Part shown: positions 53,041 to 64,000 of the stretch, one piece after another
Position numbering within the stretch: position 1 is the first letter of the stretch
Layout: the number at the start of each line of letters is the position of its first letter
DNA from: an uncultured bacterium
GTDB lineage: Bacteria; Fidelibacterota; Marinisomatia; Marinisomatales; UBA1611
Reading direction: 5' to 3'
Assembly (NCBI GenBank): GCA_963933175.1
Contig: CAWVTW010000001.1
Span: forward strand, 143 to 64,142
Length of the DNA: 64,000 nucleotides
Made by a program: the position numbers and the translations under genes
Notes under the pieces: model-generated
The model's database searches: none
What the model was told of the DNA's origin: nothing
Seen by the model: only the letters and a program-made list of their open reading frames with translations

Positions 53041-53838
53041 TTATTTTTTAAAATCTATATAATCATAAACCTTGTCAGTGTTTATTAAATCAACACCAGC
53101 GGAAGTCATAATCTCCCAGCTAATCTTATTATCTGGTGATCCCCAAAACCTTATCTCTTTATTCTCTGAGTGAACTTTTTGAATAAAACTTTTTAATAAA
53201 AGAAGTTCATTTTCAGGAAAATAACCCACCCCATCCCACTTGAAATTTTCTTTCCAATTTGAACTAATTAGAGGAATTAATTTGTTAGATATATGTTGAC
53301 CAATATCACTAAAGCGACCGTCAATGAATACATTTCTTTTCTTGATAGTTTTTAAGTCAATTATTCCTGGTCTATTTCCGGAGATGATAATTGTTACAGC
53401 CCTAGAAATTAAAGAGTCAGATTCAACATAGCTTAGCATAGGTTCGTAATTATCTAATACTTTCTGTAAAGTTGAATATGTTTCTATTGCCGATGTTTTT
53501 ATATCCACTAGAAGATATAGTGAAATATTATTTTCATATATGTGACCATTGTTACTTAAAAACAACTCCCATAGAGGATCCAAGTATAAGGTCTCTATAG
53601 TTCTACCTTTTTTTAATTGTAAACGATTATGACCAACATACAATTTAGTTTTTGATAAGAATACATCTACCTCGATACTTTTAAAGTTGTTTTTTAAAGC
53701 AGCTACTAATGGTTCTTTATTGAGATAATCATTATGAGAATGAGCATTATTTACATATCCTTGTCCAAATGCAATATTAAATAAGCTAATCTGAAATATT
53801 GAAACGTATAAAAAGAGAACTATAATATTTGAAGCCAT
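53041..53838 (-). CDS. secreted PLC-like/GDPD-superfamily phosphodiesterase (AIM6-like)
   Basis: Signal peptide, then NNAHSHNDYLNKEPL..AL...FKSIEVDVF, the HSHNDY ... E.D motif I associate with the AIM6/PI-PLC-X-like phosphodiesterase family. Confidence 0.6.
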   Translation of the reverse strand: MASNIIVLFLYVSIFQISLFNIAFGQGYVNNAHSHNDYLNKEPLVAALKNNFKSIEVDVFLSKTKLYVGHNRLQLKKGRTIETLYLDPLWELFLSNNGHIYENNISLYLLVDIKTSAIETYSTLQKVLDNYEPMLSYVESDSLISRAVTIIISGNRPGIIDLKTIKKRNVFIDGRFSDIGQHISNKLIPLISSNWKENFKWDGVGYFPENELLLLKSFIQKVHSENKEIRFWGSPDNKISWEIMTSAGVDLINTDKVYDYIDFKK

Positions 53839-53840
53839 AA

Positions 53841-55187
53841 TTAATCTTCAGTTTTTTTATTCCATAGAGCAAGTGAAAGTATAAATGAAACAATAGAAGC
53901 AAAAACCCAGAATATTATTGCATCATCAAAATTATATAATAATGCAGACGTATCGTTTACTGTAGATGTTTTTATTAGTAAGCTACTTATTTTTTCCTGT
54001 AATCCAGCTCCTATGTAACTAAACAGCCCTATAAAACCCATTGCTGCACCAGAAATATTTTTTGGGGCAATATCAATAGCAAATAATCCACCTAGAACAG
54101 CCAACAAACCACTCAAGGTAAATCCATAGATTAAAAATGCGATTGTAAGCACAACCGTTGAGTCTGGTCCAAAAAATATAAGAAAAAGTGATGCAATTTC
54201 AACTATACCGAACATAAGAGTGACGGGCGGTCTTCGCGCATCAAAATATTTATCAGAAATAAATCCATAAGCAACACAGCCAAGAATCCCCGTGAATGTA
54301 TTTAATCCAATTAAACTTCCCGCCTCAATTAATGAGTAACCTCTTGCCTCTTGTAAATAAAGAATTCCCCAACTGTTTATGGCGTATCTAGTAACGTACA
54401 TTGTTGAGCTTGCCAATCCCAAGATCCAAATCGACGGATACTTAACTATCTTTAACTGATTGTTTAGCACTTCTTTGAAATTCTTTGAAACTAGTTTTAA
54501 ATCTGTTTCTTTTTTCCAGGAGCTAATGCTTGGTAGGCCTAAACTTTTTGGACTATCCTGTAAAAATCTATAACCAATAGCCGTTACGATAATTAGCAAT
54601 ATACCAGGGACAATAAACCCGGACCTCCAAGAAAAATAATCTACAAGTGCAGCTGTACCAATAAATGTAAGCCCTTCTCCAATTGAGTGTGCCGTGCTCC
54701 AGATGCCATAATAACGGCCGCGTTCTTTTGGGCTAAACCAATTAGTTAGTGCTATGGCGCACGATGGAGCACCAATACCCTGCACCCAACCATTTATAAA
54801 CCAAAAAATCACCCATAAGATTAGCGACTGATTTAACCCCATAGAGATATTGATTAAGCCAGAAGCAATTAGCCCAAAAGTAAAAAACCTTTTTATATTA
54901 GCATAATCGGCTAAAAAACCATTAAAAAATTTACCAAGCGCATACCCGTAAAAGTATGCAGACCCCACTAAGCCAAGTTCACTAATCGAAAATATACCGT
55001 TATCAATTAGAGGTTTTTTTACGATAGAAAGAGCTAATCTGCAGGTATATCCAAACCCATATAAAACAATAATTGAAGCAAGAACTTCTTTTCGATACTT
55101 CGAATATTGAGAAGCTATTTGATTTTGATCAACTAACGGAGCTCGATATTCATCCGCTTTGAAAAAATTTAGAATCTTAGTGGACAT
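53841..55187 (-). CDS. organophosphate:phosphate antiporter, GlpT/UhpC family (MFS)
   Basis: 448 aa. The N-terminus (..YSKYRKEVLASIIVLYGFGYTCRLALSIVKKPL...S..ELGLVGSAYFYGYALGKFFNGFLADY) fits the GlpT/UhpC pattern. Confidence 0.75.
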   Translation of the reverse strand: MSTKILNFFKADEYRAPLVDQNQIASQYSKYRKEVLASIIVLYGFGYTCRLALSIVKKPLIDNGIFSISELGLVGSAYFYGYALGKFFNGFLADYANIKRFFTFGLIASGLINISMGLNQSLILWVIFWFINGWVQGIGAPSCAIALTNWFSPKERGRYYGIWSTAHSIGEGLTFIGTAALVDYFSWRSGFIVPGILLIIVTAIGYRFLQDSPKSLGLPSISSWKKETDLKLVSKNFKEVLNNQLKIVKYPSIWILGLASSTMYVTRYAINSWGILYLQEARGYSLIEAGSLIGLNTFTGILGCVAYGFISDKYFDARRPPVTLMFGIVEIASLFLIFFGPDSTVVLTIAFLIYGFTLSGLLAVLGGLFAIDIAPKNISGAAMGFIGLFSYIGAGLQEKISSLLIKTSTVNDTSALLYNFDDAIIFWVFASIVSFILSLALWNKKTED

Positions 55188-56611
55188 TAATTGTCTAACT
55201 GAAAACAGAAAGAATGCTGAAGCGGATCACCAACAGTGTTTAATACAAATTCACCTTTATAATTTTTTATTTTCCATGTCACACATAATTCATCACCACC
55301 ATCATCATCAACTTCCATAATACCATATTGACCTCTTACTCCACTTACACCATTTGAATATGGTCCACCTTTAATACTAGGTCTACGATCCAGAGGACCT
55401 GCGTGTAGTATAGGAATAGGTGCGCCTCCTCCTTTAGCATAATCACTATTTGTGCCATCATCAATTGCACTCATGTGTGCATCCCCACTGACAATGCAAA
55501 TAGGGATATCATTTTGCTTAATAAAATTTGCAATATCTTCCCTCTCCTCAGGGTACCATCCCCAATTATCATGATCATCACACTCAAAGCCTTTATTTGT
55601 CTTAATAGTATTTTCATCATCACAATTAAACCACCCTAGATCTGGAGTACTCAAGTATGGAAAACTAGAATGCCATACAACAGCTAGATTTTCATTTTTT
55701 GCATCTAGCAGCTCTTGTTTAAACCAATCCAAATGCTCTTTTGTACCGAAATTTGTGCCTTGTTTAACTTTATTACAATTAGAAGGATTATCACTGTCAC
55801 AGTCACCCTGAAATAAAGGCCTACTTTTTTCTGACCTTAAATCAGTAAGAATATATTTCACTCTACCCACTTTAAATGTTTGCGAGATAACCGCATCTTC
55901 CCCTTGGAAAGCTAAAGGATAATGAGGAACATAATTTCTATAGGATTCTTTCGCAACAGAGCGGCACGCAACTTTTCCATCTTGATTTGGAGATAGCCCA
56001 GAACTATTATTCGGACCATAGTCATGATCGTCCCACATATAAGCTACAGGAGTACTCTTATATAATTTAGATTGTTTTGTTGAACCCAAAGCTGCATTAT
56101 AGTGTGCTAAAAACTCATCATCACAATCTTTATAAATATTTCCATAGTGAAAATCACCAAGCATTAAATAAAACAAAGACTCTTCCTCTCTAATACGATC
56201 ATAGACAGGGTGGTTAGACCCTGTATTAGCACATGTTGCAAGGGTGATTTTATAAGAAAATGGAGAGCTGGAAGGAGTGCTGAATTCTCCTAACATATTA
56301 GACTCTTTATCAACGACACCATTAACAATAAACCTATAATAATACTCAGTTGCCGGTTCAAGATCTGAGAGAGTTATCTTAGAAAAATAATTTAATTCTT
56401 CCAGAGTCTGTACACTCTCAGACAAAAACCTATCCTTTCTAAAGTTTTTTTTATCACTATACTCTATTTTAATATCGGCCTCAGAACTACTTGATAGAGA
56501 TATTACCGCACTATTTTCTAATAATGACCCCGACCAAAAATTAACAATATCAGACGCCCAAACTCGGCTAGTTATAAAAAAGAATGAAAAAACAATAATC
56601 CGAACGTTCAT
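55187..56611 (-). CDS. PhoD-like secreted phosphatase/phosphodiesterase
   Basis: Signal peptide and Fn3-like PhoD_N region. Metallophosphatase motifs are MLGDFHYGN, WDDHDYGPNN and VSGDAHMSAIDDG. Confidence 0.8.
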   Translation of the reverse strand: MNVRIIVFSFFFITSRVWASDIVNFWSGSLLENSAVISLSSSSEADIKIEYSDKKNFRKDRFLSESVQTLEELNYFSKITLSDLEPATEYYYRFIVNGVVDKESNMLGEFSTPSSSPFSYKITLATCANTGSNHPVYDRIREEESLFYLMLGDFHYGNIYKDCDDEFLAHYNAALGSTKQSKLYKSTPVAYMWDDHDYGPNNSSGLSPNQDGKVACRSVAKESYRNYVPHYPLAFQGEDAVISQTFKVGRVKYILTDLRSEKSRPLFQGDCDSDNPSNCNKVKQGTNFGTKEHLDWFKQELLDAKNENLAVVWHSSFPYLSTPDLGWFNCDDENTIKTNKGFECDDHDNWGWYPEEREDIANFIKQNDIPICIVSGDAHMSAIDDGTNSDYAKGGGAPIPILHAGPLDRRPSIKGGPYSNGVSGVRGQYGIMEVDDDGGDELCVTWKIKNYKGEFVLNTVGDPLQHSFCFQLDN

Positions 56612-56614
56612 TTG

Positions 56615-57379
56615 TTACTCCAACATGTTTTCAAAAGGTTTTTTATATGTAAAGCCATCATATCTGTTATTATCATCATGCTTTATTGCCCAGAGATAAT
56701 ACATATAAAATCCAGGTGCAGATGTCTGGCTATGGACCCTCCCACCTGTGATAGATAAGATATCACCATTTTTTATTTTATATACGTCTTCGCCAAGTTC
56801 ACCATGACCATACCCCCATTTAGGAGACAATTCATAATAATATAATTCTGATTGAGAATGATGATGAGGCGGGTAGCTACTCCACTTTCCGGGAAAATTG
56901 AGTACTTCTCCAATTACAAGTTTAGATTCTGGCGGAGTGATAGTTCCATCAAAAGCTAATCGAACTAATCTGTAGCAAGTATCATCTAACTGATCTTTTC
57001 CTCTATGCTCCGTATCTATATTATCTGGGAAATAAATTTTCCCTTTAAATTGATTGCTGTTAATAGTTTTAACAATTGCGACTCGAGTCTTTAATGTTGC
57101 ACTTATTGTAGTCGTTTCACTTGGAGCCATGTGAACAACGGTTGGGTCATAATCAACCCAATTAGGTCTATTAAAAGACAATTGGCTATCTTCAAATGTA
57201 ATAGTTCCAGCACCTTCAATAATTACCAGAGCTATTTCTTTATCTTTATCAGAGATTTCAAAGGTATCTCCATCATCCATTATTAGAATATCAAAATCCA
57301 TACCTGTTTCATCTTGTGTCTCTTGGTATGGATTTATCCCTTTAGTAAATCCAGACCTATAAAGTTTAATTAAGCCCAT
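56615..57379 (-). CDS. iolB: 5-deoxy-glucuronate isomerase
   Basis: Cupin core GKWSSYPPHHHS...ELYYY matches B. subtilis IolB GNWSSYPPHKHD...ETYYH (from memory). 254 aa, in iol context. Confidence 0.8.
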   Translation of the reverse strand: MGLIKLYRSGFTKGINPYQETQDETGMDFDILIMDDGDTFEISDKDKEIALVIIEGAGTITFEDSQLSFNRPNWVDYDPTVVHMAPSETTTISATLKTRVAIVKTINSNQFKGKIYFPDNIDTEHRGKDQLDDTCYRLVRLAFDGTITPPESKLVIGEVLNFPGKWSSYPPHHHSQSELYYYELSPKWGYGHGELGEDVYKIKNGDILSITGGRVHSQTSAPGFYMYYLWAIKHDDNNRYDGFTYKKPFENMLE

Positions 57380-57386
57380 AAATCCC

Positions 57387-58451
57387 CTATTTGTTAATCA
57401 TTCTATCTCGAACAATATTAGCAAACTCATCATAACCCAATAAAAAATTTCTCATTGTATGTTTCGTTGGCCCAAACGATTCAAAATCATTAATTCCCAT
57501 ACCATTCTCATGGTATGCCTTATTAAAATCTTCAAAATTTTCTTTTAGAGTACCAATAATTTCCTCATCAACAGGGATGTTTATTTTATTTTCAACATTG
57601 ATTTCTGAGTTGTTAAATTTATTCCACCAATCATAAGGCATGCTAATAATAACATCCCCACCAACGATTTCAGACCAATGTAAATCACACCGAAAAGCGG
57701 CAGCTAATAACTTAGAATTGTATCCTCTTTCTTGAAATATATTATAAGCATTCTTGAAGATAGCAATAGAAGCCCAATCTATCATTTCAGAACTAACATC
57801 AATATTATTTTCTTCTTTTTTACGCTTCAAATGATCGTCGATACGTCCAACCATAATAGTAACATATGGAGTTAGATTTGTTATATCAATACCTTTATCA
57901 TTTGCGAGAGCAATGCCTCGCTCTACCGCCTCAGCTACTTGAATGGTTTGAGAAACTGAAAAACTTACAGTAGCATTAATTGATATACCATGAGATGTTA
58001 ATTTTTCCATCGCTTCAATGCCAGCAGGAAGAGCAGGACATTTAATAGCAATATTTGGTGCTAGAGATGCTAGATACTTACCCTGCTCAAACATAGCATC
58101 GGCATTCCTATAATATTTAGGGTTGACCTGAAGTGAAAGTTTACCTTTTTCCCCTTTTGTATCATGATAAACTGGTAATAAAATATTGGCTGCTCTTTTT
58201 CCAACCTGGTCCATTAGAAGCCATAAAATTTCATCCTCAGAGGCAGTATGATTACTAGCAATCAGCTTATCAATCACAGGCAACCATGTTTTTGGATGAT
58301 TTTTAACAGTATTCAGTGTTATTACGGGATTAGATGTGGCACCTACTGCCCCCTCTTCATATGCATGTTGTAATTCAACATGATCATTGGAGTCATTCCA
58401 CCAGTCTGATCCTAATTCAGTGGCTTGTTGCATTTTAGTTTTTTCTTTCAT
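57387..58451 (-). CDS. transaldolase-family protein embedded in the iol operon
   Basis: GATSNPVI, LSLQVNP, the Schiff-base lysine context NIAIKCPA, and INATVSFS are transaldolase/FSA class-I aldolase motifs. 354 aa. Confidence 0.75.
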   Translation of the reverse strand: MKEKTKMQQATELGSDWWNDSNDHVELQHAYEEGAVGATSNPVITLNTVKNHPKTWLPVIDKLIASNHTASEDEILWLLMDQVGKRAANILLPVYHDTKGEKGKLSLQVNPKYYRNADAMFEQGKYLASLAPNIAIKCPALPAGIEAMEKLTSHGISINATVSFSVSQTIQVAEAVERGIALANDKGIDITNLTPYVTIMVGRIDDHLKRKKEENNIDVSSEMIDWASIAIFKNAYNIFQERGYNSKLLAAAFRCDLHWSEIVGGDVIISMPYDWWNKFNNSEINVENKINIPVDEEIIGTLKENFEDFNKAYHENGMGINDFESFGPTKHTMRNFLLGYDEFANIVRDRMINK

Positions 58452-58452
58452 T

Positions 58453-59343
58453 CTAGTTATTCCAAATAGTATTTAAATAATTTCTTGAGCGTATTGCATA
58501 TTCAAGTGGGTTTGCAATTTCCGGATCCTGTTCTGCTTCAATAATAACCCAACCAGTATAATTTGATTTAATAATTATTTTACTAATCTCAGAAAAATCT
58601 ATACAACCATCACCAGGCACGGTAAATGCTCCTTTGAGAACAGACTTTAAAAATGAATCTGTTTCAGATTTAATATCCTTGAATACATCATGCCTCACAT
58701 CTTTGAAATGGATATGTTTAATGCGATTCATATTTTTTTTAAAAAATTCAATTGGATTTATTCCTGCAAAATATAAATGACCAGTATCAGCACACAGGTT
58801 TACGCGGTCTGGGAGAGTATCAGATAGTAGTCTGTTGATTTCATCTTCTGTCTGAACATAGGTTCCCATATGATGGTGATAAGCGAGATCTAAATCAAAA
58901 GAGTTACATAATTCTCCAGCTTTGTTTAAGGAACTTGTGAGCCTGTCCCAATCTTGATCATTACAAACTAGCTTATTTGATAAAGGGCTATTTAATTCGC
59001 TGTGAACTGAACCAGAGCATTCTGCTATATTAATTACTTTGGCTCCCGCATCACGAAGAAGCAAAACCTTTTTTTTAATATTTTCTAATTCAATATCAAG
59101 ATCATTTGATAGGAAAAAAGTGGAATGCCATGAAGAAGCAAGTTCTAAATCGAATTTTTTTAATGCTTCTTTTATTAGAACAGCTTCTTTCGGGAATTTA
59201 TTCCCTATTTCAGTACCACTGTATCCTGCTTGCGACATTTCTGAAAGTATAGTTTGTAGAGTATAGCTACCACCTAGCTCATGCATATCATCATTACTCC
59301 AATTAATTGGAGCGATTCCAAATTGAACTCTATTATTAGCCAT
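58453..59343 (-). CDS. iolE: inosose dehydratase
   Basis: N-terminal VQFGIAPINWSNDDMHELGG matches the IolE hallmark (GIAPI.W.NDD). Xylose-isomerase-like TIM barrel. The ATG at 59343 leaves 1 nt after the iolD stop. Confidence 0.85.
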   Translation of the reverse strand: MANNRVQFGIAPINWSNDDMHELGGSYTLQTILSEMSQAGYSGTEIGNKFPKEAVLIKEALKKFDLELASSWHSTFFLSNDLDIELENIKKKVLLLRDAGAKVINIAECSGSVHSELNSPLSNKLVCNDQDWDRLTSSLNKAGELCNSFDLDLAYHHHMGTYVQTEDEINRLLSDTLPDRVNLCADTGHLYFAGINPIEFFKKNMNRIKHIHFKDVRHDVFKDIKSETDSFLKSVLKGAFTVPGDGCIDFSEISKIIIKSNYTGWVIIEAEQDPEIANPLEYAIRSRNYLNTIWNN

Positions 59344-59344
59344 A

Positions 59345-61201
59345 CTAGAAATTTCTCTCATCTTTTATTTTTTCATCATAATCTGATCTTACTTTAGATA
59401 CCTTTTCTGATGAAGAGACCTCAGCAACGGGGACATCCCACCAAGATTCGTAACCAGGTACTTTAATACTAGGATCTACTAGAATCTCTATTAACGTTGA
59501 TAATTCACTCTCCCTGGCATTTTTTAGAGCATCATTAAATTCCTGTTTGGTATTAACTGTTTGAGCATTAATTCCCATAGACCTAGCATGAGCTGCATAA
59601 TCGACAGGAAGCTCACCCCCCGTATAGCTATCTGTTTCACTATCTCTGTATCGATATTGATTCCCGAAACCATTACTACCCAAACTCATAGACAAGCTAT
59701 TAATACTACCAAAACCATTATTATTAACTAATATAATAATAAGCTTTTGATCTTCTTGCACAGCAGTAACAATTTCAGAATTCATCATCAAATATGACCC
59801 ATCTCCAACCAAAACCAGAACTTCTCCAGATTTTTTTGCAAAACGTATACCAAGCCCTCCGGCAATTTCATACCCCATACATGAGTATCCATACTCCATA
59901 TGGTATTGATCACCATTTATTGTTCGCCATAGTTTATGCATATCTCCAGGCAAACTACCCGCAGCACCAATAACAGTATCATCGCTATTCATAGAATCAG
60001 ATAATAAACCAATAACCTCTCCCTGGCTTATATCTGGCTTATTATTAAAATTAAATATTCTATCAACCTCTTTATCCCAACTACCTTTTAAGTTTTGGAT
60101 TTCATTTTGATACTCTTCTGAAACACTAAAGTTAATTTCTTTCAACATACTAGCTAATTGTTCTAAACATACCTTTGAATCCCCAACAATTGGAAGAGCA
60201 GAGTGCTTATATGCATCAAAAGAAGATACATTTATACCAATAAAGGTAACATCCGGATTTTTAAAAAGTGTTTTAGATGCTGTTGTAAAGTCAGATAACC
60301 GTGTCCCTATACAGATAACGAGGTCAGCATCACGAGCAATTATATTTGCAGCACTAGTTCCTGTAACCCCTATTGCACCTAAACAATGACTATTGTTCCA
60401 AGCGATTGCCCCTTTCCCTGCTTGTGTCTCGCCCACAGGTATGCAGGTGTGCCTGCAAAATAAATCAAGGGCTTTCTCAGCTGAAGAATATATTACACCT
60501 CCACCAGCAATAATAACTGGACGAGATGAGTTTTTAATAATATTCACCGACCTTTCTAAAGAATCTTTTATCGGAAGATTCCTGGGAATATTCCAGACCT
60601 TTTTATTAAAAAAGTTTTCTGGATATTCATATGATTCCACTTGGACATCTTGTGGAAGAGATAATGTAACCGCACCAGTGGTAGCAGGATCCGTAAGTAT
60701 TCTCATTGCCTCCGGTAAAGAAGTTAAAATCTGTTCTGGCCTGTTGATTCTATCCCAATAAACACTCACTGGTTTAAAGCTATCATTAACTGAAATATCT
60801 TGAGAACTAGTATATTCCAATTGTTGCAAGACTGGCCCAACATTACGTCTACTAAATACATCTCCAGGCAATAGTAATACAGGAAGTCTATTTATTGTCG
60901 CTCCCGCAGCGGCCGTAACCATATTTGTTGCTCCAGGACCTATGGAACTGGTACATGCAAAAGTCTTCAATCTCCTGTTCTGCTTTGCATACGCAACTGA
61001 TGTATGAACCATCGCTTGCTCATTGCGTGGTAGGAAATGTTTTAATTTTTTATTTTGCTCTAAAGCTTCTCCAATTCCTGCAACGTTTCCATGACCAAAG
61101 ATACCCCACATACCAGAAATGAATTTATTTTCAATACCATCTCTCTCAACAAACTGATTTGCCAAATAATGTACTAATGCTTGGGCCATTGTCATTCTCA
61201 T
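59345..61201 (-). CDS. iolD: 3D-(3,5/4)-trihydroxycyclohexane-1,2-dione acylhydrolase (TPP enzyme)
   Basis: 618 aa. MTMAQALVHYLANQFVERDG....FISGMWGIFGHGNVAGIGEAL is the typical IolD N-terminus. The TPP motif is GDGSYLMMNSEIVTAV....LIIILVNNNGFGSI. Confidence 0.88.
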   Translation of the reverse strand: MRMTMAQALVHYLANQFVERDGIENKFISGMWGIFGHGNVAGIGEALEQNKKLKHFLPRNEQAMVHTSVAYAKQNRRLKTFACTSSIGPGATNMVTAAAGATINRLPVLLLPGDVFSRRNVGPVLQQLEYTSSQDISVNDSFKPVSVYWDRINRPEQILTSLPEAMRILTDPATTGAVTLSLPQDVQVESYEYPENFFNKKVWNIPRNLPIKDSLERSVNIIKNSSRPVIIAGGGVIYSSAEKALDLFCRHTCIPVGETQAGKGAIAWNNSHCLGAIGVTGTSAANIIARDADLVICIGTRLSDFTTASKTLFKNPDVTFIGINVSSFDAYKHSALPIVGDSKVCLEQLASMLKEINFSVSEEYQNEIQNLKGSWDKEVDRIFNFNNKPDISQGEVIGLLSDSMNSDDTVIGAAGSLPGDMHKLWRTINGDQYHMEYGYSCMGYEIAGGLGIRFAKKSGEVLVLVGDGSYLMMNSEIVTAVQEDQKLIIILVNNNGFGSINSLSMSLGSNGFGNQYRYRDSETDSYTGGELPVDYAAHARSMGINAQTVNTKQEFNDALKNARESELSTLIEILVDPSIKVPGYESWWDVPVAEVSSSEKVSKVRSDYDEKIKDERNF

Positions 61202-61220: not shown

Positions 61221-62342
61221 TTATTTACGAATATTGTAAGTATTATTCACTTCAAGTCGTGGTGTAAAAATAGAAGTGATATCCCCCCAAGGAACAGCTT
61301 TATAATTTGTATTATCTTTAGTTCCAGAATTAACATTCGTGTTAACACCATCCTGGACAACAAATATTCCACTGCTAAATTTTCCACCTAAGTTCATATT
61401 GCAAACATCAATACCATCCGTTTCACTTGAACCATCGATAGACATATTATCGGCAATAGAGAATCGTCCAATAAAATCGTTATTCCCTTCACGTTTGTAG
61501 ATAGCATAGGTGTTATCTCCCTGACTAGAAGCAATTAGGTAACCCGTAGAATCTCCGCTATAATATATAGTTAACCCCTCTACATCAGCATAGAGGTTTG
61601 GCCCAATAGTATCTACCAATACGCCAGTAGTTGAACCTTTAGGATCGGCATCAAATTTCCAAATGCCATGATCCTCTTCTCCAATATAAAGCAGGCCTAA
61701 AATATCATCAGCTACACAACCTTCTAATTGCCCTGGGAGCTGTAACGTTCTCACTAATTTTGCATCTACTTTACCATGCCCACCTTCAAAGAGCTCGTAC
61801 TGCTCAACTTTTCCTTCTTTATCATTCACAATTGCATAAAAAACATTACTTGGACTTTTATACATACAAGAACCATACACATCTAACCCTAAAGTTATTT
61901 TTCTTGCTGAAATATTTTCAAGAGAACGCGTCTTAGAATTCATTTTATAGATACCTAGCGAATTGGAGTTTCTTAGTCCGGTGGTTACAACATCTACTAA
62001 AACCCCATCTACTTTCATACCATACCTAAGATCAACATTATTGGCTTTCTCTACTTCTGTTTCAAAAATCTGATGACCTTCTAGATCATACACTCTGAGG
62101 CCAGCTGACTCTTCATCTTTATCTGTTCCAATAATTACAGATAATGACGGATTTGTTGGATGCACCCAGACACAAGGGTCATCTGCAGTATCATCACTAG
62201 CTGGAGTTGGATCAGTTTCTATCGCTGCTGATACTTCACCATTTATTATTCTAATAATTATTTTTTCCGAAGAACAAGCATTCAAAAATAATAGACTAAG
62301 AAGAAAGGTTAATAATTTGAAAGGATTAATAATTGAATACAT
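61221..62342 (-). CDS. beta-propeller phytase (3-phytase, BPP family) lipoprotein
   Basis: Lipobox LFLNACSS. BPP motifs are ADDPCVWVHP, NNVDLRYG, EGCVADDILGLLYIGEEDHGIWKF, VEGLTIYY...GYLIASSQGDNTYAIYKR and SETDGIDV...LG..F..GIFVVQDG.N. Confidence 0.88.
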   Translation of the reverse strand: MYSIINPFKLLTFLLSLLFLNACSSEKIIIRIINGEVSAAIETDPTPASDDTADDPCVWVHPTNPSLSVIIGTDKDEESAGLRVYDLEGHQIFETEVEKANNVDLRYGMKVDGVLVDVVTTGLRNSNSLGIYKMNSKTRSLENISARKITLGLDVYGSCMYKSPSNVFYAIVNDKEGKVEQYELFEGGHGKVDAKLVRTLQLPGQLEGCVADDILGLLYIGEEDHGIWKFDADPKGSTTGVLVDTIGPNLYADVEGLTIYYSGDSTGYLIASSQGDNTYAIYKREGNNDFIGRFSIADNMSIDGSSETDGIDVCNMNLGGKFSSGIFVVQDGVNTNVNSGTKDNTNYKAVPWGDITSIFTPRLEVNNTYNIRK

Positions 62343-62536: not shown

Positions 62537-64000
62537 TTAGAATCTATAGTTTGTTCCAATTTTCACAGTTGGGCCATAGACTTCTTTCTCAACTGGTCTA
62601 CTTACATCTCCCATAAAATAAACATGAGGTACATCTGTAATGTTTAGTACGTCTGCAAAGAAAGTAAGTTTATTGTTAAAGTTGTAACTCAGCGAGAAAT
62701 CTAACCGATTAGCCGGATCATAATAAATATCTTCATCTTTATCTTCACCAACTTCTGTTATGTACTTGTCAGCAATAGATTGTGAAAATCTTGCCGTTAG
62801 TTTACTAGTTTCATAAGCAAAACTAAGGTTTCCTGTATTCGCAGCTTGCCCAGGAAAGGTCGTTTTCTCACGCTCAGGACCATAGTCGGCTTCCGAGGAT
62901 GTAGATGTATAGTTTAAATAAAGTAAAAGATTACTCAATGGTCCAGGTAAAAAATCTAGATTCTTTTGAAAATTCATTTCCCAACCACTTAGAGTAGCAG
63001 CTTCTCCATTAACAGGCATAACTACCTCATCATATACTTTAGCACCATCACGTATTGTTTCATCTTTAAGAACTGCTGTATAGATATAGTTATCAATCGC
63101 CTTACTAAAATAGCCAAAAGAAAAGATTCCTAAGCCTTTTGGATAATACTCTAGCATAAGGTCAATATTTTTTGAATGGGCCGATTCAAGCTCTGGGTTT
63201 CCTGCTTCAGCATCATCACCATCAGTAGCAACAAATGGCACCAATGCAGCAAAGTCTGCTCTTGCGATAGTTTCAGTATAGGCTGCGCGGACCAGGGTTC
63301 TATCATTAACAGCATAGCGAACGTGTGCCATCGGAAGCACATCTGTATAATCCTTAGATACATTTTGTGCTGTAAAAAATGAATCAATACTTGTCGGTAT
63401 ATCATACCCACCATCTTCAGCATCTTCCACATTTCCTAACCAAGATTTATACGTGCTAGATGTATTTTCCATTCTAGCCCCGCCGATAAAGTTCAACTTA
63501 CCCATCTTCATGTCAGCCATGCCATAGAACGCAATAATATCTTCAGTAGCGTCCCACGTTTCAAGGATAGCATCTTCATATAGCGGTAAGATCTCATACG
63601 ATCCAATATTTGCACTCATGTGGTCACGTATTTTCTTAACGTCTATACCATGTGTGTGCACATAGTTACCTTCCATATACTTTTCACCATCAATCTCCAT
63701 GCTGAAATCTTTCATCAAAAGGTCGTCATCACCATCCCACCCCCAGACTTCACCGCCTTTTTTATCTGATTTTTTTTCCTTAGAAGATAGTTTTGCACCC
63801 ATCTTTATTTTTCCATTGGCACTTCCAAGAGCAAGCGGCACAGAAAGGTTAAAGGCCAGAACCTGATCATCGCCTGATACTAAGTTTCCGTTTGGATTTT
63901 TAGCGTCAGGTATATAGTCGCCCTCAATCTCAATCTCATCTAGCTCATAGCTTGAGAGATCATGCTGGTCGAACGCTGCTCCATCTTCATCAGTAAAGTT
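62537..64000 (-). CDS. TonB-dependent receptor, C-terminal barrel portion (N-terminus beyond the right window edge)
   Basis: The track ORF starts at a GTG (63841), but the frame stays open to base 64000. The beta-barrel pattern ends in the terminal ..TVKIGTNYRF (aromatic C-terminus). Confidence 0.8.
   Translation of the reverse strand, partial: NFTDEDGAAFDQHDLSSYELDEIEIEGDYIPDAKNPNGNLVSGDDQVLAFNLSVPLALGSANGKIKMGAKLSSKEKKSDKKGGEVWGWDGDDDLLMKDFSMEIDGEKYMEGNYVHTHGIDVKKIRDHMSANIGSYEILPLYEDAILETWDATEDIIAFYGMADMKMGKLNFIGGARMENTSSTYKSWLGNVEDAEDGGYDIPTSIDSFFTAQNVSKDYTDVLPMAHVRYAVNDRTLVRAAYTETIARADFAALVPFVATDGDDAEAGNPELESAHSKNIDLMLEYYPKGLGIFSFGYFSKAIDNYIYTAVLKDETIRDGAKVYDEVVMPVNGEAATLSGWEMNFQKNLDFLPGPLSNLLLYLNYTSTSSEADYGPEREKTTFPGQAANTGNLSFAYETSKLTARFSQSIADKYITEVGEDKDEDIYYDPANRLDFSLSYNFNNKLTFFADVLNITDVPHVYFMGDVSRPVEKEVYGPTVKIGTNYRF

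Follow-up and report, generated by a model that had tools for sequence, protein, structure and literature searches.

A Q/M-type transaldolase-family protein as a candidate carbon–carbon-cleaving enzyme in a marine myo-inositol operon

Gene content of the locus

The stretch of DNA analysed here (the window) comprises 64,000 nt and corresponds to contig C1 of a metagenome-assembled genome (MAG) of an uncultured bacterium of the order Marinisomatales; the MAG amounts to 1.74 Mb in 288 contigs, with a completeness of 84.6% and a GC content of 38.7%. The window contains an inositol catabolism (iol) operon in which a gene for a member of the transaldolase (Tal) and fructose-6-phosphate aldolase (FSA) family, referred to below as the TAL-like gene, is placed between iolE and iolB. 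A role of its product after IolB, in place of the aldolase IolJ and probably also of the kinase IolC, is well supported by gene context, phyletic pattern and residue analysis. All genes of the locus lie on the minus strand, and the core of the operon consists of the following genes.

59345..61201, minus strand: iolD, trihydroxycyclohexane-1,2-dione acylhydrolase (TIGR04377, 918 bits, cut-off 715)
58453..59361, minus strand: iolE, myo-inosose-2 dehydratase (TIGR04379, 381.5 bits, cut-off 290)
57387..58451, minus strand: TAL-like gene, Q/M-type transaldolase-family class I aldolase, 354 residues (Pfam TAL_FSA, 146.5 bits)
56615..57379, minus strand: iolB-like gene, divergent 5-deoxy-glucuronate isomerase of the KduI/IolB family (Pfam PF04962, 151 bits)

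The gaps, recomputed from the open reading frames (ORFs), are 1 nt between iolE and the TAL-like gene and 7 nt between the TAL-like gene and iolB, as given in a preliminary description of this DNA. The motifs quoted there were all found in the protein: GATSNP (residues 37–42), LSLQVNP (105–111), IAIKCPA (which includes K137) and INATVSFS (158–165). The same description had remarked that iolC and iolJ are missing from the operon, and neither was found anywhere in the window. The iolB-like product scores below the curated cut-off (TIGR04378, 90 bits versus 205), as does its counterpart in the related locus L011 (range 90–97). The closest named homologue of the TAL-like protein comes from a “Candidatus Neomarinimicrobiota” MAG.

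Family membership, fold and active-site residues

The TAL-like protein belongs to Pfam family PF00923 (TAL_FSA), which it matches over residues 18–312 against a cut-off of 27 bits. This is its sole Pfam match; there is no PF01116 or PF09863 (DUF2090) domain, so that the protein would be a functional analogue of the IolJ and DUF2090 aldolases, not a member of either group. It falls below every NCBIfam cut-off for Tal (NF002881, the best, 119.8 versus 367 bits; TIGR00876, 80.6 versus 233.75; TIGR00874, 51 versus 396) and below that for FSA (TIGR00875, 46.7 versus 245.95), and its length of 354 residues compares with about 220 in the TalC/FSA architecture. The AlphaFold2 model (pLDDT 97.5) has a Tal-type (α/β)8 fold: the top 50 Foldseek matches are all transaldolases, with TM-scores of up to 0.84, and the best structural matches in the PDB are the transaldolases of Neisseria gonorrhoeae and Corynebacterium glutamicum (TM-scores 0.80–0.84, 20–21% identity). 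A maximum-likelihood tree recovers the Q/M-type family as monophyletic (93/84), with the long canonical Tals as its sister group, and gives 96/96 support to the iol-linked clade within it. The phylogenetic comparison with bona fide Tal and FSA proteins proposed in the preliminary description thus places the TAL-like protein outside the canonical Tals, on a monophyletic branch of its own.

Active-site residues were mapped by alignment to Escherichia coli TalB and FsaA (from NC_000913.3) and to about 80 family representatives. Asp17, Asn35, Lys132, Thr156, Arg181 and Arg228 (TalB numbering) are kept in the TAL-like protein and in these representatives; D20, N41, K137 and T161, the equivalents of the first four, are kept in at least 67 of 80. 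Lys137 is the predicted Schiff-base lysine, and Arg203 and Arg254 are predicted from the alignment to make up an anion site. The catalytic Glu96 of Tal is replaced by Gln108 (compare Gln59 of FSA), with Gln in 75 of the 80 representatives, and the position of TalB Phe178 and FSA Tyr131 is occupied by Met199 (Met in 57 of 80). The pair Glu96 and Phe178 of bona fide transaldolases is therefore not present, and of the FSA pair, Gln59 and Tyr131, only the Gln is. The preliminary description had pointed to the residues that bind the substrate phosphate and to the FSA Tyr versus the Tal Glu as informative; both arginines of the anion site are kept, the Tal Glu is Gln as in FSA, and the Tyr131 position is Met.

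In the complex of TalB with dihydroxyacetone (DHA), Asn154 and Ser176 hydrogen-bond the free C1 hydroxyl of the DHA unit. Their equivalents in the TAL-like protein are N159 and T198; within the iol clade the Asn154 position is kept in 14 of 16 proteins and the Ser176 position is Thr in 15 of 16. All iol-linked proteins share the pattern D-N-Q-K-N-T-T-M-R-A-R at 11 active-site positions, while the seven canonical Tals of the phylum (five of 319–378 residues and two of about 220) read D-N-E-K-N-T-S-F-R at the first nine. Conservation alone pointed to no conserved Tyr, His or Glu as a replacement acid/base residue. With neither acid/base catalyst in place, the chemistry cannot be read straight from the homologues. 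In FSA, Tyr131 is described as the dominant proton shuttle, and the A129S substitution, at the equivalent of the Ser176 position, improves activation of DHA as donor (PMC13259622).

Conservation of gene order and phyletic distribution

The order iolD–iolE–TAL–iolB is kept in all close and mid-distance relatives inspected, at 59–78% identity (L007–L010 at 72%, L011 at 61%, L016–L020, G026, G041, G053, G205, G257, G260 and G222). A more distant relative with 43% identity, on a 158-kb contig (L031), has the order ABC transporter–iolG–iolB–iolD–iolE–TAL–TauE, and on L022, in one assembly only, IolE and the TAL-like protein are fused in a single ORF of 655 residues directly after iolD. A contig scan with the single TAL-like protein gave five close loci; several representatives of 50% clusters lie on contigs too short for context (P0157/L027). 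Related clusters also encode IolG (TIGR04380, 357 bits, cut-off 355) and the CoA-acylating methylmalonate-semialdehyde dehydrogenase (MMSDH, IolA; 505 and 547 bits, above cut-off). Two further clades have the TAL-like gene adjacent to that for MMSDH, one together with an iolB-like gene (L025) and the other with a second TAL paralogue (L026); this adjacency fits malonate semialdehyde as a product of the pathway.

The phyletic pattern was examined in 301 genomes of the phylum, with thresholds of E≤1e-150 for iolD and for the TAL-like profile. True iolD was found in 13 genomes and the TAL-like gene in 13, with both in 12 and neither in 287; related genomes are not independent samples in these counts. 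The one genome with an apparent TAL-like gene only (G222) has iolE and an iolD fragment at a contig end, so that every one of the 13 TAL-positive genomes has iol genes. The sole genome with iolD only (G184, 95% complete) yielded neither a TAL-like gene nor a KduI/IolB gene, while iolG, iolD, iolE and MMSDH are present; in G217 the TAL-like gene and iolB are adjacent to each other, 18 kb from iolDE. In these two genomes the TAL-like gene and IolB thus behave as a pair, and an iolB-like gene stands beside the TAL-like gene in all relatives looked at. The module is spread patchily over seven families of the phylum. On the evidence of synteny and co-occurrence with iolD, the TAL-like gene belongs to the conserved make-up of the iol operon and is not a stray housekeeping Tal.

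A TAL_FSA gene of any kind was found in none of the 24 same-family relatives searched (G001–G024), many of them more than 90% complete, and in 4 of 40 same-order relatives. This lineage evidently lives without a transaldolase, and its pentose-phosphate metabolism seems to work in the absence of this enzyme.

Some features of the related loci deserve separate mention. The IolB that always accompanies the TAL-like gene is divergent, and it might make another product than classical IolB or have another specificity. At the usual place of the TAL-like gene, directly after iolE, G184 and G217 have an ORF of 349–350 residues (L041:12744-13793 and L042:9109-10161, respectively); no Pfam or NCBIfam match was obtained for it, an atlas search gave a vague lead to tetratricopeptide repeat (TPR)-like proteins, and it might belong to another way of completing the inositol pathway. 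The phytase-type locus of G257 (L045:17190-18973) has no MMSDH; it has a dehydrogenase of the NAD_binding_2 family resembling 3-hydroxyisobutyrate dehydrogenase (HIBADH) and a second AP_endonuc_2 gene (IolI/IolH-like) after the ABC transporter, and malonate semialdehyde may be reduced in this organism instead of oxidised.

Search for canonical IolC and IolJ

Apart from the TAL-like gene, the MAG yielded no TAL_FSA gene. No IolC above cut-off was found in this 84.6%-complete assembly; the best match is a PfkB protein of 392 residues (contig C25, 88 bits to IolC_N), which was ruled out as IolC on the grounds that it is a generic ribokinase-like protein beside a TPR gene. DUF2090 was likewise not found in the MAG. 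Its single class II aldolase (contig C4) is a class IIa FbaA (470 bits) encoded next to a pyrophosphate-dependent phosphofructokinase (PPi-PFK), and hence glycolytic; it was ruled out as IolJ.

The same holds among the 14 genomes of the phylum that carry iolD or the TAL-like gene. DUF2090 was found in none of the 14, and neither was an IolJ-type aldolase, the only PF01116 matches being class IIa FbaA in G000 and G257 and weak ones of 55 bits; eight genomes have none. Ten of the 14 have MMSDH above cut-off. G026, which is 95% complete, has neither IolC nor any PF01116 gene, and its MMSDH lies elsewhere in the genome. The preliminary description had suggested looking for an anticorrelation between a tal gene in the iol operon and iolC/iolJ; in the 301-genome sample, neither DUF2090 nor an IolJ-type aldolase was found in the 14 genomes, and one has an IolC-like gene. 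That description had also held that iolC and iolJ elsewhere in the genome, together with a place of the protein among the housekeeping Tals, would speak against its proposal; neither was encountered.

Whether a different kinase acts in the pathway is less clear-cut. Many iol-TAL clusters are accompanied by a three-gene module encoding an SSF (Na+/solute) transporter, a PhnP-like hydrolase of metallo-β-lactamase (MBL) fold and a very divergent PfkB, at the following positions.

L011:2817-6133: SSF-MBL-PfkB module
L021:5594-8940: SSF-MBL-PfkB module
L049:1569-4922: SSF-MBL-PfkB module
L050:382-3733: SSF-MBL-PfkB module

The divergent PfkB reaches about 30 bits with any NCBIfam model, IolC_N being among the weak matches, and is thus not an IolC orthologue. 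Its gene is the neighbour of iolG in SSF-type clusters (G026, G041, G053, G260, G184, G217 and L011). In G205 the module is on a different contig from iolDE-TAL-B, which indicates that it tracks the transporter and not the TAL-like gene. No homologue of this PfkB was found in the MAG of the window by tblastn, and no kinase was found within 9–10 kb in L007–L010 and L031. A kinase-free arrangement thus applies to L031 and to the phytase-type loci as far as they are visible; it is not proven in general. The bypass of the kinase step postulated earlier accords with the lack of IolC above cut-off in the MAG and in nearly all TAL-positive genomes; the divergent PfkB of many related clusters leaves room for phosphorylation. 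As regards the substrate of the SSF-MBL-PfkB module itself, candidates include inositol derivatives, among them an inositol cyclic phosphate.

Neighbouring genes and transcription

The operon core is flanked by genes with a bearing on organic phosphorus.

62537..64000, minus strand: TonB-dependent receptor (TBDR), from the ORF list, running past the edge of the window; the contig ends soon after
61221..62342, minus strand: beta-propeller phytase (Pfam Phytase, 350 bits)
55187..56611, minus strand: PhoD-like phosphatase (Pfam PhoD and PhoD_N)
53841..55187, minus strand: UhpC/GlpT-like organophosphate transporter of the major facilitator superfamily (MFS; NF008661, 280 bits, under cut-off; MFS_1, 167 bits)
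53041..53838, minus strand: GDPD_2-like putative phosphodiesterase (weak Pfam GDPD_2 match, 25.5 bits, below cut-off)

The full gene order is therefore TBDR, phytase, iolD, iolE, TAL-like gene, iolB, PhoD, UhpC/GlpT-like MFS transporter and GDPD_2-like gene. The orthologous TBDR in L007, L017 and L045 has Plug and TonB_dep_Rec domains, and the GDPD_2-like gene is kept at the corresponding position in L007–L010.

Contigs from seawater metatranscriptomes of four studies match the locus, mostly at 99% identity or above. Those of runs X1, X2 and X3 span the junction of iolB and the TAL-like gene, and those of X2 and X4 the junction of the TAL-like gene and iolE. This is consistent with transcription of iolB, the TAL-like gene and iolE as a unit; such contigs cannot prove a single transcript, and carry-over of DNA is possible. 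Within iolE, parts of the region of about 58460–59200 have scant or nil contig cover in some runs, which does not argue for absence. The X1 contig has a 2-nt AA insertion after position 57848, within the TAL-like gene, which may be a strain variant or an assembly error.

Outside the iol clade, two contexts of the wider family were noted. In a Christensenellales MAG (L028:8309-13235, P0291) a Q-type homologue that lacks both arginines of the anion site lies between a hydrolase of the haloacid dehalogenase (HAD) type and a radical-SAM activase with a glycyl radical enzyme resembling pyruvate formate-lyase, a layout that recalls E. coli fsaA beside ybiY–ybiW (L024). On a contig of Spirochaetales/Sphaerochaeta type (L029:1358-10871, P0275) a Q/M-type homologue occurs with TctABC genes, two short-chain dehydrogenases/reductases (SDRs), a split transketolase, a HIBADH-like dehydrogenase and an MBL hydrolase; this cluster is probably an undescribed sugar-acid pathway.

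Proposed reaction and alternative explanations

The product of the IolB step, 5-dehydro-2-deoxy-D-gluconate (DKG), is a compound of ketose type, CH2OH-CO-CHOH-CHOH-CH2-COO−. By Fischer-projection reasoning the carbons flanking its scissile bond are D-threo, as in fructose, which fits the fact that IolJ is a homologue of fructose-bisphosphate aldolase. In the pathway proposed here, the phytase and PhoD would free inositol, and IolG, IolE, IolD and IolB would convert it to DKG. The TAL-like enzyme would then bind unphosphorylated DKG via its C5 keto group, form a Schiff base on Lys137 and split the C3–C4 bond, standing in for IolJ and probably for IolC too. Malonate semialdehyde would be released, to be passed in the relatives to IolA/MMSDH, and the DHA unit would be left as an enamine on Lys137. 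From there it could be transferred to glyceraldehyde 3-phosphate, giving fructose 6-phosphate (transaldolase mode), or be hydrolysed to free dihydroxyacetone (FSA mode). The equivalents of Asn154 and Ser176 and both arginines of the anion site are kept, and these fit an unphosphorylated donor of DHA type with an anionic tail, that is, DKG. On balance, the TAL-like protein is probably the C–C-cleaving enzyme of a variant myo-inositol pathway, a class I enzyme of the Q/M-type branch that splits unphosphorylated DKG; the substrate, the products and the fate of the DHA unit are what we infer from context and residues.

The preliminary description had envisaged an FSA-like aldolase that frees dihydroxyacetone. 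This part of its proposal is not supported: the Tyr131 position is Met, and no DHA kinase of Dak1 type was found in G000 or G026, although a partial GlpK-like gene is present and the kinase result does not decide between release and transfer. With the Gln of FSA present but its Tyr absent, release of free DHA is not specifically predicted, and transfer to glyceraldehyde 3-phosphate appears at least as plausible. Between transfer and release there is only a slight lean, towards transfer. Of the shortcut as a whole, cleavage after IolB is well supported, along with the failure to find iolC, iolJ or DUF2090; its free-DHA chemistry and the lack of a kinase step stay hypothetical.

Several observations weigh against the proposed role. 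The Glu of Tal and the Tyr131 of FSA are both missing from their usual positions, and members of the wider Q/M family also occur in non-inositol contexts. The divergent PfkB accompanies many related clusters, and in G257, whose locus is of the phytase type like that of the window, a PfkB relative with 33% identity is encoded between TRAP and GntP transporter genes at a distance of 15 kb from iolD. One of the 14 genomes, the TAL-positive G260, has an IolC-like gene over cut-off; it is on another contig, beside glyoxylate-shunt genes and in a non-iol context. Finally, no orthologues of iolG and iolA turned up in the MAG of the window. The assembly is 84.6% complete, and the window contig stops in the TBDR gene; the closest of the complete loci have iolG and a regulator immediately upstream of that gene, just at the point where the window contig breaks off.

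It could be argued that the enzyme replaces only IolJ, as a class I aldolase that cleaves DKG 6-phosphate to dihydroxyacetone phosphate and malonate semialdehyde after phosphorylation of DKG by a non-orthologous kinase (the divergent PfkB, another PfkB or an FGGY kinase). The divergent PfkB next to iolG in the SSF-type clusters listed above, the PfkB relative near the phytase-type locus of G257 and the uncharacterised 392-residue PfkB of the MAG itself would all be candidates for such a kinase. Nevertheless, the divergent PfkB follows the SSF transporter and the MBL hydrolase and not iolDE-TAL-B, no homologue of it turned up by tblastn in the MAG of the window, and L007–L010 and L031 have no kinase within 9–10 kb. 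We know of no enzyme of the Tal/FSA family with a C1-phosphorylated donor, and the kept residues N159 and T198 are those that bind a free C1 hydroxyl of the DHA unit. Taken together, these points make a DKG-6-phosphate aldolase unlikely.

Instead of the post-IolB step, the enzyme might act on another inositol-derived or co-metabolised ketose, such as the product of another isomer, an inositol-phosphate derivative or a sugar acid. The sugar and sugar-acid contexts of the wider family (Tct transporter, split transketolase and SDR; glycyl radical enzyme and HAD), which are unrelated to inositol, and the low score of the divergent IolB speak for such a substrate. However, the TAL-like gene and iolB are the tightest pair of the cluster, being together in G217 apart from iolDE and both gone in G184; the neighbouring MMSDH suits malonate semialdehyde; and the genomes yielded no further candidate that could cleave DKG, so that a substrate outside the main route is distinctly improbable. 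An ordinary pentose-phosphate transaldolase that is merely located in, or co-regulated with, the iol operon would account for the transaldolase fold, for most of the active-site residues and for the lack of another TAL_FSA gene in the MAG. Yet the catalytic Glu has become Gln throughout the family, while Glu and Phe are both retained in the phylum's canonical Tals; the score is 120 bits against the 367-bit cut-off of the best Tal model; the 24 family-level relatives have no Tal at all; and presence of the TAL-like gene follows iolD almost perfectly. A housekeeping function is thus hardly credible.

Cleavage of unphosphorylated DKG by the TAL-like enzyme therefore remains the preferred interpretation. 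A more far-reaching version, which we regard as tentative and rather doubtful, is a widespread, transcribed marine inositol route that needs neither the DKG kinase nor the class II aldolase, in which the Q/M-type enzyme moves the DHA unit of unphosphorylated DKG to glyceraldehyde 3-phosphate, yielding fructose 6-phosphate and malonate semialdehyde. If true, then together with the PPi-PFK of these genomes the conversion of inositol to triose phosphate would cost no ATP, and catalysis would proceed without the Glu of Tal or the Tyr of FSA, residues thought to define catalysis in the family.

Significance

The iol pathway is regarded as settled, and annotation tools call it incomplete if iolC or iolJ is missing. 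If the TAL-like enzyme fills this gap, such genomes would become recognisable as users of inositol and phytate, and the scavenging of organic phosphorus (TonB receptor, phytase and PhoD) would be tied to carbon gain in these marine bacteria. For enzymology, it would be a natural catalyst of Tal fold in which Gln/Met takes the place of the Glu/Phe or Gln/Tyr pairs that are thought to set transferase versus aldolase chemistry, and it could be developed into a biocatalyst that transfers DHA to carboxylated aldehydes. No paper placing a transaldolase-family enzyme in inositol catabolism was found in a literature search that did not cover subscription journals.

Comparison with known systems

The proposed role is at the same point of the pathway as that of IolC and IolJ or of the IolC-DUF2090 fusion, after IolB and before IolA, where DKG is converted to malonate semialdehyde and a C3 unit. 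The folds and mechanisms are unrelated: IolJ, a class II aldolase (PF01116), depends on a metal and uses the 6-phosphate as its substrate, while the TAL-like enzyme has a class I Tal fold.

In fold and length the protein is closest to the long-type Tals of C. glutamicum (3R5E) and N. gonorrhoeae (3CLM), which are also its best sequence matches in the PDB (E about 1e-19 to 1e-17). Long-type canonical Tals form the sister group in the tree, and the active-site Asp, Asn, Lys, Thr and Arg are common to both. In addition to the low identity, the differences are the replacement of Glu by Gln, of Phe by Met and of Ser226 by Ala in the TAL-like protein, which is moreover not a housekeeping enzyme and is confined to iol-positive genomes. 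With E. coli FsaA it shares the Schiff-base Lys and the Gln that takes the place of the Tal Glu, and the reaction proposed for it is likewise a retro-aldol cleavage of a ketose to a DHA unit. FsaA, in contrast, is a decameric protein of 220 residues with Tyr131 in place of the Met, and it has Leu and Ala where the TAL-like protein keeps Asn154 and has Thr at Ser176.

The nearest precedent for the proposed chemistry concerns sulfofructose, whose ketose head is identical to that of DKG, with a sulfonate where DKG has a carboxylate. The 6-deoxy-6-sulfofructose transaldolase SftT splits this unphosphorylated ketose with an anionic tail, letting out a C3 aldehyde and passing the DHA unit to glyceraldehyde 3-phosphate to give fructose 6-phosphate, with no sugar kinase involved (PMC7491151). 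Both SftT and the TAL-like protein are Tal/FSA-family enzymes encoded in catabolic operons. SftT is of the TalC/FSA type of about 220 residues, to which the TAL-like protein aligns weakly (about 75 residues, 41 bits); the TAL-like protein is of the long type, with Gln and Met for the canonical acid/base pair, and would act on a different substrate in a different pathway.

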